64,000 nt of DNA from an uncultured candidatus Porisulfidus sp. (lineage in GTDB: Bacteria; Pseudomonadota; Gammaproteobacteria; Poriferisulfidales; Poriferisulfidaceae). Below the pieces are notes generated by a model, which was not told the origin of the DNA, did no database searches, and was given only the letters and a program-made list of their open reading frames with translations. Location of the stretch: NCBI GenBank assembly GCA_965214545.1, contig OZ243950.1:132813-196812 (forward strand), read 5' to 3'. Shown piece after piece: positions 38,081-49,026 of the stretch (its first letter is position 1; each line of letters starts with the position of its first letter). The translations under genes were made by a program, and so were the position numbers.

Positions 38081-39916
38081 TTATGAAGGGTCCAGGAGAT
38101 AGGCGTCCAGAATCTGGCGGGCGATGGGTGCGGCCAGAGTGGAACCGTGGCCGCCGTGTTCGACAATGACCGCCAGGGCGATTTTCGGCGCTTCGGCTGG
38201 GGCGAAAGCGATGAACAGCGAATGGTCGCGGATGTGTGCGGGAAGGTCTTCGGAATCCGGTCGTTTTTCGCCGTAGTTGATCACCTGTGCGGTTCCGGTT
38301 TTTCCTGCGATGCGGTATGCCGCGCCTCGCCCGGAACGCCAGGCGGTTCCATTCTCGGCGTGGACCACATCCACCATGGCGTCCGTGACCAGTTGCCACC
38401 AGGTGGGATCGGAGAGGGTCACGCGGCCGAGCTCTTGCGTCGAGTTCTGGATGACTTGACCGTCTTGCTCATAGGCGCGCAGCAGGCGCGGTTTCATGCG
38501 GACGCCGCGGGTGGCCAGCGTTGCGGTTGCTGCGGCGAGCTGCAGGGGCGTCAGCAGCAGGTAGCCCTGGCCGATGCCCATGATGACGGTTTCGCCGGGG
38601 TACCAGGGTTGGCCGTGGGTCTTTCTCTTCCATGCTTCGTTGGGAAGCAACCCGGTTTGCTCTCCGGGCAGGTCGATCTGCTGGGCTTGGCCAAGCCCGA
38701 ACTGTGCCAGGAATGGCTCCAAGGCATCGATGCCCATGCGGTAGGCCAGTGAATAAAAATAAACGTCGCAGGACTGGGTGATCGAGGAGCTGAGGGTGAC
38801 CCAGCCGTGGCCCTCGTCTTTCCAGTCGCGGAAGGGTCGCCGATAGTTCGGAATCTTGAACTGGGGGGCCGCGTAGAAGGGCTGGTTCGGGATGGCGTGG
38901 CCCGACTCCAGCCCGGCCAGAGCAACCAGAGGCTTGATGGTGGAGCCGGGTGCGTACTGCCCCTGGATGGCGCGGTTGAGCAGAGGGTTCTTTGTGTCCC
39001 GGATCAGGTCCTGGTAGTCGTCGGGATCAATGCTGTGCCCGAACACGTCCGGGTCAAAACTGGGCGTACTGACCAGTGCCAGAACATCGCCGGTTGAGGG
39101 CTCCAGGGCGACGATCGCGCCTTCCCGTCCGGCCATGGCCTGGCTCGCGGTCCGCTGCAGGGCGGCGTCCAGGGTAAGGAACAGGTTGCTGCCGGGGGTG
39201 GGCGCCTTGCGGTTGTGCACCATCAGGGAACGGCCCTGTGCATTGACTTCGGCCTGCTGCAGGCCGGGGGCTCCGAGCAGGAGGGGTTCATACTGGTGTT
39301 CGATGCCGGCCCGGCCGATTCGGCGGATTCCCCGGTAGCGGTAGCGGTCGATGCGTTCCCGGTCTTTCTTGCTGATGCTGGCCAGGTGGCCGAGCACGTG
39401 AGCCGTCGACTCTCCGTACGCATAGCGGCGTGCGGCATAGGCTTCCAGGTAGACGCTGGGGAACTGGTGCAAGTGCACGGCGACGCGGGCGATCGTTTCT
39501 TCCGGCAGGTCGATCTTGAGCGGGGTTGTTTCGAATCGGCTGCTTTGCCCGCGTTGCTGGAAGCGCTGGATCTCTCGGTCATGGATAGCGGTGAGTTCCC
39601 GCAGTTTTGAAATCGTAGCATCCAGGTCGTCAACCTGCGAGGGAATCAGGCTCAGGCTGTAGGCGACGCTGTTGTCCGCGAGCAGGGTGCCGTGGCGATC
39701 GAAAATCAGGCCCCGCGAGGGCGGGAGGGTGACCTGGCGCAGATGGTTTTCCGTCGACAACATGGCGAAGTGCGCGGTGTGTATGGTCTGCATCCAACCG
39801 ATCCGCAGCAGCAACAACAACAACAGCAGGCTCCCGATGCCGACCAGCAGGGTCAGTCGCTGGTGGGTTTGGGTGGCGCTGCGGTGGAACTCGCTTTTCC
39901 GGGTGGCGGGCGTCAT
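38081..39916 (-). CDS. mrdA: Penicillin-binding protein 2 (elongasome transpeptidase)
   Basis: 611 aa with an N-terminal TM anchor, the STIKP (SxxK) active site, SSN and KTG motifs. Confidence 0.93.
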   Translation of the reverse strand: MTPATRKSEFHRSATQTHQRLTLLVGIGSLLLLLLLLRIGWMQTIHTAHFAMLSTENHLRQVTLPPSRGLIFDRHGTLLADNSVAYSLSLIPSQVDDLDATISKLRELTAIHDREIQRFQQRGQSSRFETTPLKIDLPEETIARVAVHLHQFPSVYLEAYAARRYAYGESTAHVLGHLASISKKDRERIDRYRYRGIRRIGRAGIEHQYEPLLLGAPGLQQAEVNAQGRSLMVHNRKAPTPGSNLFLTLDAALQRTASQAMAGREGAIVALEPSTGDVLALVSTPSFDPDVFGHSIDPDDYQDLIRDTKNPLLNRAIQGQYAPGSTIKPLVALAGLESGHAIPNQPFYAAPQFKIPNYRRPFRDWKDEGHGWVTLSSSITQSCDVYFYSLAYRMGIDALEPFLAQFGLGQAQQIDLPGEQTGLLPNEAWKRKTHGQPWYPGETVIMGIGQGYLLLTPLQLAAATATLATRGVRMKPRLLRAYEQDGQVIQNSTQELGRVTLSDPTWWQLVTDAMVDVVHAENGTAWRSGRGAAYRIAGKTGTAQVINYGEKRPDSEDLPAHIRDHSLFIAFAPAEAPKIALAVIVEHGGHGSTLAAPIARQILDAYLLDPS

Positions 39917-42175: not shown

Positions 42176-42266
<91 letters not shown>

Positions 42267-42282
42267 GGGGTTTCTCTGCTAA

Positions 42283-42615
42283 TCAGGCTTTCTGGATGTC
42301 GCCTGTTCCCGCCATCGGGGGCAGGTAGGTGACGTTTCCTTCGGCCTTGCGAATTTCGCCGGCTCCCGCTTTTTCCACCTCGTCGATGCGCATCACTGCA
42401 TGCATCGGGATATAGGTTCGAGGGACAGACTCGAACTCGGCTTTCAGGCGTTCCTCGCTCGGGTCGACCACGACTTGCGCCTTTTCGCCGAAAATGATCC
42501 CCTCGATGACAATGAAGCCGTACAAATCGGAGGAATAGACGTGTTCCGCGTAGATCTCGTAGATTTCTCCGTTGGAAAAGAAAATCACTTTGTAGATGGG
42601 CTCTGGCTCTTGCAT
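42283..42615 (-). CDS. DUF1820-family small protein
   Basis: 110 aa starting MQEPEPIYKVIFFSNGEIYEIYAEHV. The pattern is typical of the DUF1820 proteins found near icd/tRNA loci in gammaproteobacteria. Assignment is from memory of the family. Confidence 0.5.
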   Translation of the reverse strand: MQEPEPIYKVIFFSNGEIYEIYAEHVYSSDLYGFIVIEGIIFGEKAQVVVDPSEERLKAEFESVPRTYIPMHAVMRIDEVEKAGAGEIRKAEGNVTYLPPMAGTGDIQKA

Positions 42616-42657
42616 GACGCTACCGGTTCCGGGAAAATTAATTATACAAGACCTGCG

Positions 42658-44001
<1,344 letters not shown>

Positions 44002-45590: not shown

Positions 45591-46613
45591 TCAATGGCTG
45601 CGCTTTTCCCCCGGCTTCTCGGAGTGGCCATAGCATTTGCGGCATTTCTTGGGTTTGGGGTCGCTTTCGGACACGACACCATCCTCGTTCGTGTCGTGGC
45701 GCGAAAATTTCTTCTGTCCTGAAGCCAGGTATTCCCCGAAACTGATTTCTCCATTCTCGTCTGTGTCCATCGTCCCGAAGCGCGCCTTCGACCGCTTCAG
45801 TTTTTTCTCCCGGGCCTTCTCGATTGCCTTATCCAGGCGATGGCCGAATTCCAGTGCGTACTCTTCCGGGCTTAGCGTCTCGTCGCCGTTCTCGTCTGTC
45901 CGGTCAAAGTCGGCGCGGCGCCGGGCGCTGAATTCCTCGTGTGTGATCGCGCCGTCTCCATCGGTATCGTACTTCCGCATCATCCCTTTTTTGCTGTGGG
46001 TGCTGGGCATGTGGAGGACCCGCTTTGCGTGTTTTTCGCACATGCCTTTGTGTTTGCCGTGCTTGTGCCGCTTGTGGTCGTGGCCGGACTTGTGGTCGTG
46101 GTCGTGGCCGCTCTTCCCCTTGCCGGGGTAGCCCTTACATCCCTTTTTGCAATGTCGTTTGGGGCGCGGGTCTTCTGCATTGATGATGCCATTTTCGTCC
46201 CCATCAAAGCGCTGGAAGCTGCGCTCGCCGGATGCCTTGTACTCCGCCCACTCGATCTGTTCGTTGCCGTCTTCGTCCAAGGTGTCAAAGCGGCGGTGGG
46301 ACTGCCGGGTGTGCCGCTTGCGTTCCTTTTTGATTTTCTTGTCCAGGCGGTCGGCGCGCGCCTGCATGCGCTCGTCGACGTCGACTGAGCCATTACCGTT
46401 TTTGTCAATCAGGTCGTAACGGGACCGACGGGCCTGCTCGAATTCCTCCGCGGTCACTTGGGCATCGCCGTTTTGGTCGTACCGCTGAATGAAGGACCCC
46501 ATTCCATGGTGCCCCCCGCGGTGTCCTTTCTCGTGTTCTCCAGAGTGTCCTGCAAACGCGAGGCCTGCAGCGGTCGTCAACATGATCGCCGACGCTAAAA
46601 ATCGTGATTTCAT
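45591..46613 (-). CDS. Periplasmic EF-hand repeat protein with a His-rich metal-binding core
   Basis: Signal peptide, then at least 8 EF-hand-like loops (DQNGDAQVTAEEF, DKNGNGSVDVDE, DEDGNEQIEWAEY, DGDENGIINAED, DTDGDGAITHEEF, DENGDETLSPEEY, DTDENGEISFGEY, DTNEDGVVSESD). In the middle sits a His/Lys-rich block (KSGHDHDHKSGHDHKRHKHGKHKGMCEKH). Confidence 0.7.
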   Translation of the reverse strand: MKSRFLASAIMLTTAAGLAFAGHSGEHEKGHRGGHHGMGSFIQRYDQNGDAQVTAEEFEQARRSRYDLIDKNGNGSVDVDERMQARADRLDKKIKKERKRHTRQSHRRFDTLDEDGNEQIEWAEYKASGERSFQRFDGDENGIINAEDPRPKRHCKKGCKGYPGKGKSGHDHDHKSGHDHKRHKHGKHKGMCEKHAKRVLHMPSTHSKKGMMRKYDTDGDGAITHEEFSARRRADFDRTDENGDETLSPEEYALEFGHRLDKAIEKAREKKLKRSKARFGTMDTDENGEISFGEYLASGQKKFSRHDTNEDGVVSESDPKPKKCRKCYGHSEKPGEKRSH

Positions 46614-46809: not shown

Positions 46810-46838
46810 TTGACAGCCCTAGGTGGGGGTGCGACAAT
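46810..46838 (+). promoter_or_regulatory. Putative sigma70 promoter of the glyW-cysT-leuZ tRNA operon
   Basis: TTGACA (46810-46815), a 17-nt spacer, then GACAAT (46833-46838), about 15 nt before the tRNA-Gly 5' end. Confidence 0.45.
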
Positions 46839-46853
46839 TCCAGTCCGCACGGG

Positions 46854-46929
46854 GCGGGAATAGCTCAGTTGGTAGAGCGTAACCTTGCCAAGGTTAAGGT
46901 CGCCGGTTCGAACCCGGTTTCCCGCTCCA
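46854..46929 (+). tRNA. glyW: tRNA-Gly (GCC)
   Basis: GCGGGAATAGCTCAGTTGGTAGAGCGTAACCTTGCCAAGGTTAAGGTCGCCGGTTCGAACCCGGTTTCCCGCTCCA gives a cloverleaf with anticodon GCC. Confidence 0.9.
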
Positions 46930-46971: not shown

Positions 46972-47045
46972 GGCTGAGTGGCAGAGTGGTTATGCAGCGG
47001 CCTGCAAAGCCGTGGACGCCGGTTCGATTCCGACCTCAGCCTCCA
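46972..47045 (+). tRNA. cysT: tRNA-Cys (GCA)
   Basis: GGCTGAGTGGCAGAGTGGTTATGCAGCGGCCTGCAAAGCCGTGGACGCCGGTTCGATTCCGACCTCAGCCTCCA. The acceptor pairs GGCTGAG/CTCAGCC and the anticodon loop is CT-GCA-AA. Confidence 0.88.
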
Positions 47046-47073: not shown

Positions 47074-47376
47074 GCGGGCGTGGCGGAACCGGTAGACGCT
47101 GCGGACTTGAGGCCATTGAGTGCTCTCCGGGAAACCGGGGATGCAGAACTGCTCAAATTCGGGGAACCCTGTGAAATGGCGATCCCGAGCCAAGCCCGGG
47201 AGGGAACTTCCGGGAAGGTGTAGAGACTAGACGGGCAGCGCCTAAGGCCGGACGGCTAAGGTGAAGGGATAGTCCGGACCACAAACGCCGCGCAAGCGGC
47301 GGCGGCGAAAGCCGTAGTTGGTGCGAAAATCCGCTGGGCTTTGCCCGTGGGGGTTCGAATCCCTCCGCCCGCACCA
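47074..47376 (+). tRNA. leuZ: tRNA-Leu (UAA) interrupted by a group I intron in the anticodon loop
   Basis: Exon 1 (47074-47108): GCGGGCGTGGCGGAACCGGTAGACGCTGCGGACTT. Exon 2 (47326-47376): AAAATCCGCTGGGCTTTGCCCGTGGGGGTTCGAATCCCTCCGCCCGCACCA. Joined they make an 86-nt class II tRNA with acceptor GCGGGCG/CGCCCGC, anticodon stem GCGGA/TCCGC and loop CTT^AAAA (anticodon UAA). The gly-cys-leu order matches E. coli glyW-cysT-leuZ. Confidence 0.88.
47109..47325 (+). ncRNA. Group I (subgroup IC3-like) self-splicing intron inserted between U34 and A35 of tRNA-Leu(UAA)
   Basis: The 217-nt insert contains the conserved IC3 core strings AAATTCGGGGAACC, CCGAGCCAAGCCCGGGAGGGAACTTCCGGGAAGGTGTAGAGACTAGACGG, CCTAAGGCCGGACGGCTAAGGTGAAGGGATAGTCCGGACC. 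These are essentially identical to the cyanobacterial tRNA-Leu and Azoarcus tRNA-Ile intron cores, as recalled. The 5' exon ends in U, which can pair with the G of an internal GAGT guide sequence (P1: ACUU/GAGU). The intron ends in G (omegaG) before the AAAA of exon 2. Confidence 0.88.
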
Positions 47377-47460: not shown

Positions 47461-49026
47461 ATGACCCACCGCAAGCTTCCCATTGGAATCCAGGACTTCC
47501 GGGCGATCCGGGAGCGGGGCTATTACTACGTGGACAAGACCCTTCTCATCCGGGATCTGGTGGAGGGAGGCGAGCACTATTTCCTGTCCCGACCGCGCCG
47601 GTTCGGCAAGAGCCTGCTGGTGAGCACGCTCGAAGCCCTGTTCGAGGGTCAGGAGGAGCTGTTCCAGGGGCTGGCTATCCACGGCCACTGGGACTGGTCG
47701 GTGCGCCATCCGGTGGTGCATCTGAGCTTTGGTGCGGGATATACGAAGCCGGGGGACCTTGAGGGGGATATCCTCACGCAACTGGCGGGAATCGAGGAAG
47801 ATGCCGGTCTTTCTCCGGCAACCCAGATACAGGATGGGCCGAACCGGTTGAAGAACCTGTTGTATCGCCTGCATCGTGGGACCGGCCAGCAGGTCGTGGT
47901 GCTGGTGGACGAATACGATAAGCCGGTCCTGGATGTGTTGAAGGACACGGCGTTGTTGGAGGCGAACCGGGACTACCTGTGGGGGCTCTACGGTATCATC
48001 AAGGGCAGCGCCGAACATGTGCGTTTCGTGTTCGTGACCGGGGTGAGCATGCTCTCGAGGGCGAGCCTGTTCTCGGGGCTCAACAACCTGAGGGACATCA
48101 GCCTGGACCCACGGTACGCCACGGTCTGCGGGTACACCGATGCCGATCTGGACACGGTATTCGCCCCGGAACTGGAGGGCTTGGACCGGGATCAGATACG
48201 CGCCTGGTACAACGGTTATCATTGGCTGGGTGAGGAGAAAGTCTATAACCCGTGGGACATCCTTCTGTTGTTTGACAGCCGGAAATTCGAGCCCTACTGG
48301 TATGAGACCGGTTCGCCGAGCTTCCTGTTCCGGTTGATGATGGAGAAGGAAATGAGCCCGATGGAACTGGAGAACCGGATGGCCGACGAGAGAATGATCT
48401 CGAACTTCGATGTGGAGGACATCGGGGTGGAGGCCTTGCTGTTCCAGACCGGCTATCTGACGATTACCGCCGAGGAGACGACTGGGGTCAGGACCTTTTA
48501 CACGCTGGACTATCCGAACCAGGAAGTGCGACAGAACTTGAACGACGGGCTGTTGGAGCACTTGGGACAACGGGGGGAGGACGTGGTGGCCTGGGGCCGG
48601 CAGTTATGCGGCCGCCTGGAGTCGGGGGATTTCGAGGGATTTGGAGACGAGCTGAAAAGTTTTTATGCGGGGGTGCCGTACCAGTGGCACACGAGCGGGG
48701 AGTTGGCGCGGTACGAGGCTTGGTACGGAGGCCTGCTGTATGCGTGTTTCCGGTCGAACCGAGTGGACCTGCGGGTGGAGGATGCCTCCAGCCGGGGCCG
48801 GGCGGACATGGTGGTGTTCCGCGGGGGGCAGGTGTTCGTGCTGGAGTTCAAGATGGCAGCGGAGGGCGAAGACGGGGAGGCGGCGCTGGATGCGGCTCTG
48901 GTGCAGATGCGCGAGCGGGGCTATGCGGAGAAGTACCGCGACCGTGGCGAGCCGATTCATTTGGTCGGGATAGCGTTCGGACGGGAGGAGCGCAACCTGC
49001 TGGGAGTGCGAGCGGAATTGGCCTGA
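47461..49026 (+). CDS. AAA-ATPase-like / PD-(D/E)XK nuclease family protein (PF09820 plus PF08011 architecture)
   Basis: 521 aa. The N-terminus MTHRKLPIGIQDFRAIRERGYYYVDKTLLIRDL...FLSRPRRFGKSLLVSTLEALFEG is the hallmark of the 'AAA-ATPase-like' domain. The C-terminus (GEL.RYE.WY...D.R.E.......RADMVVF...VFVLEFK) has a D...E.K-like PD-(D/E)XK nuclease pattern. It lies immediately 3' of the tRNA cluster. Confidence 0.65.
   Translation: MTHRKLPIGIQDFRAIRERGYYYVDKTLLIRDLVEGGEHYFLSRPRRFGKSLLVSTLEALFEGQEELFQGLAIHGHWDWSVRHPVVHLSFGAGYTKPGDLEGDILTQLAGIEEDAGLSPATQIQDGPNRLKNLLYRLHRGTGQQVVVLVDEYDKPVLDVLKDTALLEANRDYLWGLYGIIKGSAEHVRFVFVTGVSMLSRASLFSGLNNLRDISLDPRYATVCGYTDADLDTVFAPELEGLDRDQIRAWYNGYHWLGEEKVYNPWDILLLFDSRKFEPYWYETGSPSFLFRLMMEKEMSPMELENRMADERMISNFDVEDIGVEALLFQTGYLTITAEETTGVRTFYTLDYPNQEVRQNLNDGLLEHLGQRGEDVVAWGRQLCGRLESGDFEGFGDELKSFYAGVPYQWHTSGELARYEAWYGGLLYACFRSNRVDLRVEDASSRGRADMVVFRGGQVFVLEFKMAAEGEDGEAALDAALVQMRERGYAEKYRDRGEPIHLVGIAFGREERNLLGVRAELA

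Follow-up and report, generated by a model that had tools for sequence, protein, structure and literature searches.

Group I introns that interrupt tRNA genes of bacteria fall mostly into four classical types, which together account for 3453 of the 5292 introns collected from 80,413 genomes; 'Leu.3Ug' is one of them, and all four classes are marked as subgroup IC3 by the group I intron database (Williams 2020, bioRxiv 10.1101/2020.01.27.920355, and database as cited therein). For the tRNA-Leu(UAA) intron of cyanobacteria and plastids, PMC3984707 cites Xu et al. 1990 and Kuhsel et al. 1990, and the title of Zaug et al. 1993, as cited, states that the Anabaena intron requires exon pairing in the anticodon stem. 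Crystal structures exist for the IC3 intron of the tRNA-Ile(CAU) gene of Azoarcus sp. BH72 (cited in PMC3984707). Among Gammaproteobacteria, tRNA-Leu(UAA) genes interrupted by a group I intron were reported in the Beggiatoaceae BOGUAY and Ca. Thiomargarita (PMC4853749). Here we analyse a split tRNA-Leu(UAA) gene in a 64,000-nucleotide (nt) stretch of contig OZ243950.1 (GenBank assembly GCA_965214545.1, positions 132,813 to 196,812), hereafter called the window. We consider that the leucine gene of its Gly-Cys-Leu tRNA cluster is very probably interrupted by a group I intron that is functional and belongs to the compact type known from bacterial tRNA genes (IC3, 'Leu.3Ug'). This intron is one more member of an already well-known class, catalogued in thousands of bacterial genomes.

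ARAGORN with intron detection (option -i) located the split gene at exactly 47074-47376 on the forward strand. The 5' exon (47074-47108, +) comprises the 5' strand of the acceptor stem, the D arm, the 5' strand of the anticodon stem (GCGGA, 47101-47105), C32, U33 and U34. The 3' exon (47326-47376, +) provides A35 to A38, the 3' strand of the anticodon stem (UCCGC, 47330-47334), a long variable arm, the T arm, the 3' strand of the acceptor stem, A73 and an encoded CCA. Between them lies a 217-nt intron (47109-47325, +), placed by ARAGORN at gene positions 35/36, i.e. U34/A35 (gactt-intron-aaaat), and the joined exons form an 86-nt class II tRNA-Leu(UAA). The preliminary description of this locus had drawn both exons and the insertion site in the same way. 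It is the single tRNA-Leu(UAA) gene that ARAGORN finds within the 64-kb window.

The split gene is preceded by genes for tRNA-Gly(GCC) (46854-46929, +; Rfam tRNA 71.4 bits) and tRNA-Cys(GCA) (46972-47045, +; Rfam tRNA 60.7 bits), both called by ARAGORN, with a gap of 28 nt between the latter and the leucine gene. The Gly-Cys-Leu cluster recognized earlier is therefore present, and its order is that of the Escherichia coli RefSeq annotation (pgsA, tRNA-Gly, tRNA-Cys, tRNA-Leu), where the leucine gene at the matching position also has the anticodon UAA and lacks an intron. With default settings, ARAGORN and Rfam scans reported only the tRNA-Gly(GCC) and tRNA-Cys(GCA) genes and, elsewhere in the window, a tRNA-Ser gene.

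The Rfam Intron_gpI model (RF00028) matched positions 47099-47302 over its full length (model positions 1-253) with a score of 46.1 bits and E-values of 1.3e-10 in a local search and 1.4e-8 over the 64-kb window. The check proposed in the preliminary description thus returned a match, but one below the Rfam gathering score of 50, because of which a default Rfam scan is silent on the intron. No bacterial sequence is among the 12 seeds of this model, and in the survey of bacterial tRNA introns it was used at a 20-bit threshold, with matches counted from 18 bits (Williams 2020, bioRxiv 10.1101/2020.01.27.920355).

We searched one genome per species with the core motif AAGGTGTAGAGACTAGACGG and obtained at least 120 matches. 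Of the 121 matches listed, ARAGORN identified 60 as tRNA-Leu(UAA) genes with an intron at the U34/A35 site, and the remainder are split tRNA-Arg, tRNA-Ser, tRNA-Phe, tRNA-Thr and tRNA-Met genes. The junction CUU/...G/AAAAUC is common to at least 60 other genes. An alignment of 52 tRNA-Leu(UAA) introns with that of the window (alignment A1, 53 sequences) displays a shared anatomy that is both conserved and covarying. Over P1 to P9 and the anticodon stem, 94.9% of the alignment cells are paired, compared with 81.6% in shuffled alignments and 30-42% with slid partners, and 42 of the 69 pairs show compensatory changes (28.1 in shuffles). The covariation score was 0.369 versus 0.136, a value as high occurring in 0 of 500 shuffles. 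With the alignment alone as input, RNAalifold independently recovered 11 of the 14 helices; the elements in its structure are the anticodon stem, P1, P2, P3, P4, P5, P6a, P8, P8a, P9, P9a and P9b. Minimum free energy folding was uninformative: the spliced tRNA gave a non-cloverleaf structure (z = -1.9), and the fold of the pre-tRNA (z = -2.95) recovered P2, P6a, P9a and P9b alone, P4 appearing in the centroid only.

We laid out the helices, all on the forward strand, with the guidance of a published alignment of bacterial tRNA introns. P1 pairs the exon CUU and the first intron bases GA (47106-47110) with UUGAG (47116-47120). The first base of the intron, directly after the exon U, is a G, and the splice-site wobble U47108.G47118 is U.G in 53/53 sequences, with covarying neighbouring pairs (AU/GU/CG). 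G47325, the terminal (omega) G, is equally invariant (53/53). The preliminary description had noted both a possible pairing of the 5'-exon U with an internal guide G and the final G. The exon halves pair across the intron as the anticodon stem (47101-47105 / 47330-47334), whose pairs are kept in 100% of cases, with three of five covarying. P2 (UCUCCGG/CCGGGGA, 47124-47130 / 47135-47141) is capped by a GAAA tetraloop (47131-47134), shows compensatory changes in all seven pairs and is lengthened in the RNAalifold structure by UGC/GCA (47121-47123 / 47143-47145). P3 (CUGCUC 47149-47154 / GGGCAG 47233-47238) is 99.7% paired, with three of its six pairs covarying, and P4 (UCGGG 47159-47163 / CCCGA 47184-47188) is 100% paired. 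P4 encloses P5 (CC 47168-47169 / GG 47178-47179), which is flanked by A-rich J4/5 and J5/4 segments and in which one pair switches between C-G and G-C in 15 sequences. P6 (GCC 47189-47191 / GGU 47217-47219) is invariant, and the P6a hairpin (47195-47201 / 47208-47214) covaries in six of seven pairs.

P7, the guanosine-binding helix by homology, is formed by G[A]GACUA (47223-47229, with the bulged A47224) and UAGUCC (47270-47275) and is invariant in 53/53 sequences, by construction for its 5' strand, which is covered by the search pattern, and not for its 3' strand. As P6 and P7 do not vary in the alignment, they are backed by conservation and, for P7, by one compensatory change from A-U to G-C in a plasmid homologue. 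J8/7 (AAGGGA) and the 3' strand of P7 (together 47264-47275) are invariant or nearly so, as are J6/7 (GUA), J3/4 (AAA(U)) and J4/5 (GAAC), all of which are in place. The P7 bulge and these joining segments would have the roles assigned to them in studied introns. The four core motifs quoted in the preliminary description are all found in the sequence.

The periphery looks like that of a compact intron. P8 (CGCC/GGUG) and P8a (GGCC/GGCU) occupy 47239-47263, with three of four and four of four pairs covarying, respectively. The internal loop between them (CCUAAG...UAAGG) resembles the 11-nt GAAA-tetraloop receptor (CCUAAG...UAUGG); the third base of its 3' half varies freely in the 53 sequences, and by analogy with the Azoarcus structure the loop may serve as a receptor. 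A three-way junction at 47278-47322 comprises P9 (ACCA/UGGU), P9a (CGCCGC/GCGGCG, GCAA loop) and P9b (GCGGC/GCCGU, GAAA loop); its helices are 87-93% paired, and 12 of 15 pairs covary. With GAAA loops present at 47131-47134 and 47307-47310 and the receptor-like motif in P8, the periphery may correspond to the compact one of subgroup IC3, which lacks P5abc and has GAAA tetraloops on P2 and P9. Taken together, the alignment, the covariation and the Rfam match uphold the earlier assignment to the group I introns of bacterial tRNA (IC3) type.

By analogy with the studied IC3 introns of pre-tRNAs, the intron very probably works as they do. The tRNA cluster would be transcribed, and the intron would fold into P1 to P9 with the P3/P7 pseudoknot, the anticodon stem holding the exon halves together. 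A free guanosine bound in P7 would attack the bond 3' of U34, marked by the U.G wobble in P1. The terminal G47325 would next occupy the same P7 pocket, and the 3'-OH of U34 would attack the bond after G47325, joining U34 to A35, which would yield the mature UAA loop and free the 217-nt intron. Catalysis itself, and its independence from proteins, are what we infer from these relatives.

Several points weigh against a functional intron, namely the Rfam score under the gathering cut-off, a P10 of at most 2 bp and a P5 of merely 2 bp in this short variant. Self-splicing in the window organism is likewise extrapolated from relatives, and the structure that we tested was derived from the window, which inflates the pairing of the window sequence but leaves the other 52 sequences unaffected. 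The same low score and very short P5 and P10 would suit a decayed, splicing-dead relic in a pseudogene copy of tRNA-Leu(UAA), with another gene supplying the tRNA; our check for a second copy covered the window, and an intron-less tRNA-Leu(UAA) gene may be present elsewhere in the genome. However, all conserved core elements are intact and identical to the consensus of the 53 sequences, the cluster position is conserved and the encoded CCA has been retained. In addition, a related locus, L121, retains an intron of 220 nt that scores 56.9 bits with Intron_gpI, above the gathering score. The window intron is set apart from its closest relatives mainly by compensatory or wobble substitutions: relative to the intron of locus L069, we counted five compensatory substitutions, four one-sided ones that leave the pair intact and two that break it, and relative to that of L059, eight, two and three, respectively. 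That pairing is mostly kept with respect to the three closest introns argues that the structure is under selection rather than decaying, and we regard a dead relic as very improbable.

The preliminary description had called a tRNA-Leu(UAA) intron unusual in a gammaproteobacterium, which our data contradict: Leu.3Ug is a classical type (Williams 2020), it is represented here by at least 60 genes, and the Beggiatoaceae provided earlier gammaproteobacterial cases. The idea of rarity outside cyanobacteria is out of date. Leu.3Ug introns among the matches listed occur in Alphaproteobacteria (many), Betaproteobacteria (Burkholderia, Paraburkholderia), Gammaproteobacteria, Acidobacteriota, Binatia and Bacteroidota, the four gammaproteobacterial ones among the matches listed being those of Halioglobus, Carnimonas, Microbulbifer and Ca. 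Porisulfidus.

The preliminary description had also raised the question of a vertical relic versus lateral transfer. In the host lineage, the intron is inherited with the gene, since L121, whose penicillin-binding protein PBP2 is 78% identical to that of the window, has the same cluster and intron. A much older vertical descent, from the ancient cyanobacterial/plastid tRNA-Leu(UAA) intron and kept since before the bacterial phyla split, would account for the shared U34/A35 site and host tRNA, and the window, L121 and L069 do cluster together when the 53 Leu(UAA) introns are arranged in a neighbour-joining tree, as expected if the intron is inherited with its gene in this lineage. Groups congruent with their hosts were also found for Acidobacteriota, Burkholderia and Caulobacterales. 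However, the tree mixes classes, with Microbulbifer and Carnimonas (Gammaproteobacteria) inside an alphaproteobacterial clade and Halioglobus next to an alphaproteobacterium, and it is weak evidence, being short, devoid of support values and devoid of a cyanobacterial sequence. Proteobacterial introns of tRNA-Arg (82% identity) and tRNA-Leu (85%) resemble the window intron more than the cyanobacterial Sel1.Leu.3Ug does (72%), and the E. coli gene at the same cluster position is intron-less. These comparisons disfavour an ancient cyanobacterial relic, which we hold to be improbable, and point towards a history of the intron that mixes vertical and lateral steps.

Lateral acquisition may have involved the whole gene, exons and intron together, with displacement of the resident leuZ-type gene of the Gly-Cys-Leu cluster. 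The exons of the window gene share 88-91% identity with their counterparts in intron-bearing genes of Alphaproteobacteria, compared with 74% for E. coli leuZ. Among intron-bearing tRNA-Leu(UAA) genes, the exon type is alike across phyla, which fits transfer of the whole gene, as proposed before for cyanobacteria (Rudi et al. 2002, as cited). When genes with an identical 26-nt D-arm/anticodon-arm sequence are compared, 16 of 25 with an intron have the acceptor stem GCGGGCG/CGCCCGC, as do 4 of 111 intron-less ones from metagenomes, but the intron-bearing genes come from L001-L121 (61 genes) and the others from metagenome contigs L248-L367, two samples that are neither phylogenetically independent nor taxonomically matched. 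Host taxonomy may therefore explain this bias, and intron-less genes with that acceptor stem do exist. That conjugative plasmids and viral contigs also carry this gene type (see below) is in line with transfer, while no integrase or repeat was seen near the window gene, although no search was aimed at them. Displacement of the resident gene is in our opinion unlikely, if less so than the cyanobacterial relic. The broader proposal that tRNA-Leu(UAA) genes with an intron belong to a single lineage of genes that moves laterally, with exons and intron travelling together on plasmids, in resistance modules and in phage tRNA arrays, and that a member of it replaced the leuZ-type gene in this symbiont-like lineage, is similarly unlikely.

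We identified the same gene type on plasmids. The resistance plasmid pCTX-M3 (NC_004464.2, 61823-62121; L245:5001-5299) harbours a tRNA-Leu(UAA) gene that is complete and interrupted by a group I intron, approximately 90 nt from a resistance module with a tmrB-like ATPase gene, aac(3)-IId and IS26. This gene matches that of the window at 74% identity over all 303 nt and is closest to the alphaproteobacterial L004 and L073. Its intron scores 36.8 bits with Rfam Intron_gpI, ARAGORN mis-calls the gene as tRNA-Stop(tta), and the RefSeq annotation has no feature at its position. The gene is also found in 1281 PLSDB plasmids and, among 5426 complete genomes of E. coli, in 636; its copies at 589 places on E. 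coli plasmids and at 82 on chromosomes are at least 99% identical. In the literature searched, no paper connects a group I intron with tmrB/aacC2. Among plasmids, the window is matched best (78.6% identity) by a split tRNA-Leu(UAA) gene with a 204-nt intron (Intron_gpI, 45 bits) located beside trb conjugation genes on a 316-kb conjugative plasmid of Bradyrhizobium sp. ISRA443 (NZ_CP094524.1; L246:4001-4290).

The IMG/VR viral contigs yielded at least 120 matches to the core motif (L125-L244), and 44 among the matches listed are split tRNA-Leu(UAA) genes. In approximately 40 loci among the matches listed, 5-30 ordinary tRNA genes surround the intron (30 in L175, 22 each in L164 and L198), as in large phages. 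According to a 2014 review, all phage group I introns then known were in protein-coding genes. None of the viral introns among the matches listed is close to that of the window, the best match being 78% over 140 nt, and the GenBank phage records gave seven weak partial matches only.

A metagenome-assembled genome (MAG) of a Chitinophagaceae bacterium (JAULAZ010000003.1; L105:4136-4983, reverse strand) harbours a 761-nt intron at the same site of tRNA-Leu(UAA). The extra sequence in its P1 loop encodes a protein of 152 residues that matches the Pfam HNH endonuclease family (23.9 bits, cut-off 21.4) and that we regard as a homing endonuclease candidate for this class of introns. The window intron contains no homing endonuclease, which its size of 217 nt excludes; the open reading frames that overlap it have at most 97 codons, mostly cross the intron boundaries and were treated as chance occurrences.

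The host of the window gene had been described as a Pseudomonas-like gammaproteobacterium. Its PBP2 (38081-39916) has a 100% identical counterpart on a 1.85-Mb contig and relatives at 75-88% identity only in MAGs named 'Gammaproteobacteria bacterium', and it reaches about 51% or less with better-named taxa (Chromatiales, Ectothiorhodospira, Sulfurifustis). The names of the nearest protein relatives thus support a gammaproteobacterial host, while the PBP2 similarities do not suggest a Pseudomonas-like one. Relatives of the host lineage carry ankyrin proteins. L121 is syntenic with the window over most of the region. Outside the lineage of the window and L121, the closest intron among the matches listed is that of Ca. 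Porisulfidus (L069), a gammaproteobacterial sponge symbiont. The tRNA cluster was not found within the fetched flanks of L122, L123 and L124, indicating that its position is not fixed in the lineage. Two upstream tRNA genes resembling tRNA-Gly and tRNA-Cys of the window lie approximately 1.3 kb from the split tRNA-Leu gene in L069 (L069:41-1850) and approximately 2.4 kb from it in Halioglobus (L059; L059:456-3328), so that, judging from gene order, the tRNA cluster of both has apparently received an insertion.

A promoter-like site (TTGACA-17-GACAAT with a TG; 46810-46838, +) lies approximately 15 nt upstream of the tRNA-Gly gene. It is a pattern match from a consensus scan that returned one site where 0.3 are expected, and it might be the promoter of a three-tRNA transcript. 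A gene at 45591-46613 (-), flanked by the isocitrate lyase gene and the tRNA cluster, codes for a predicted secreted protein of 340 residues with repeated calcium-binding EF-hand motifs and histidine/lysine-rich stretches. In L121 the corresponding slot is occupied by genes for proteins of 878 residues, with a faint N6_Mtase match, and 170 residues, which indicates that the region beside the tRNA cluster is variable. Directly 3' of tRNA-Leu, the gene at 47461-49026 (+) encodes a protein of 521 residues with AAA-ATPase_like and PD-(D/E)XK (PDDEXK_9) domains, for which the protein collection has no exact-sequence record. Two long-intron calls of ARAGORN, a tRNA-Ala with a 1175-nt intron (42176-43444) and a tRNA-Gly with a 96-nt intron fusing the Gly and Cys genes, were treated as ghost-exon artefacts. 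The 'Plastid-psbl-rps4' model of Rfam gave matches on the strand opposite tRNA-Ser(GGA), in the window (42179-42231, +; 45.6 bits) and in L121 (L121:8426-8469; 40.9 bits); they are below the gathering score of 68 and appear to be artefacts of the model that stem from the tRNA.

The main practical value of the finding lies in annotation. Default tRNA and Rfam scans overlook the split tRNA-Leu(UAA) gene, and the genome would consequently seem to lack the sole reader of UUA codons. In terms of biology, the window adds one further host lineage, a group of gammaproteobacterial MAGs, to an already large catalogue. The question of relic or transfer is a fair one, to which a single window locus adds little beyond existing surveys. 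In our view, the window intron itself is less interesting than the copies that resistance plasmids and phage-like tRNA arrays carry.

Among known systems, the gammaproteobacterial precedents are likened to the window gene by host tRNA and intron group, not by sequence comparison; they are the Beggiatoaceae and the subsurface Pseudomonas sp. D0715, in which Vepritskiy and co-workers are said to have described an interrupted tRNA-Leu(UAA) in 2002. The cyanobacterial/plastid tRNA-Leu(UAA) intron of the Anabaena/Synechococcus type shares with the window intron an identical site and host tRNA and the overall group I fold. In addition to the lower identity of Sel1.Leu.3Ug, the cyanobacterial introns differ from it by GCAGAGACU before P7, where the window has GUAGAGACU, by another P3 and by longer P5 and P6 peripheries. 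The Azoarcus sp. BH72 tRNA-Ile(CAU) intron has the same compact architecture, and its GUAGAGACUAGACGG...AAGG.AUAGUCC core is identical; its P2 and P9 also have GAAA loops, and its P8 contains a CCUAAG receptor-like motif. However, it resides in another tRNA at another site (after position 36, 'Ile2.5Ug') and is 70% identical over aligned bases; its P5 is longer and its P9 simpler.

Closer in sequence is the alphaproteobacterial tRNA-Arg(CCU) intron ('Arg.5Ug', Agrobacterium type), whose representative Rur1.Arg.5Ug is 82% identical to the window intron and shares its P9 three-way junction ending in ...GCGGCGAAAGCCG..., but which has a different tRNA and insertion site and, in P7, a G-C pair where the window has A-U (GACUG/CAGUC). 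The best likeness is with the Leu.3Ug class, which has the same tRNA, site (CUU/intron...g/AAAA), U at -1, terminal G and P3, P4, P6, P7 and J8/7 sequences as the window. Ncf2.Leu.3Ug, a seed sequence of the Williams survey, is 85% identical over the whole intron and differs in the sequence or length of peripheral helices only (P2, the P5 loop, P6a, P8a and P9a).

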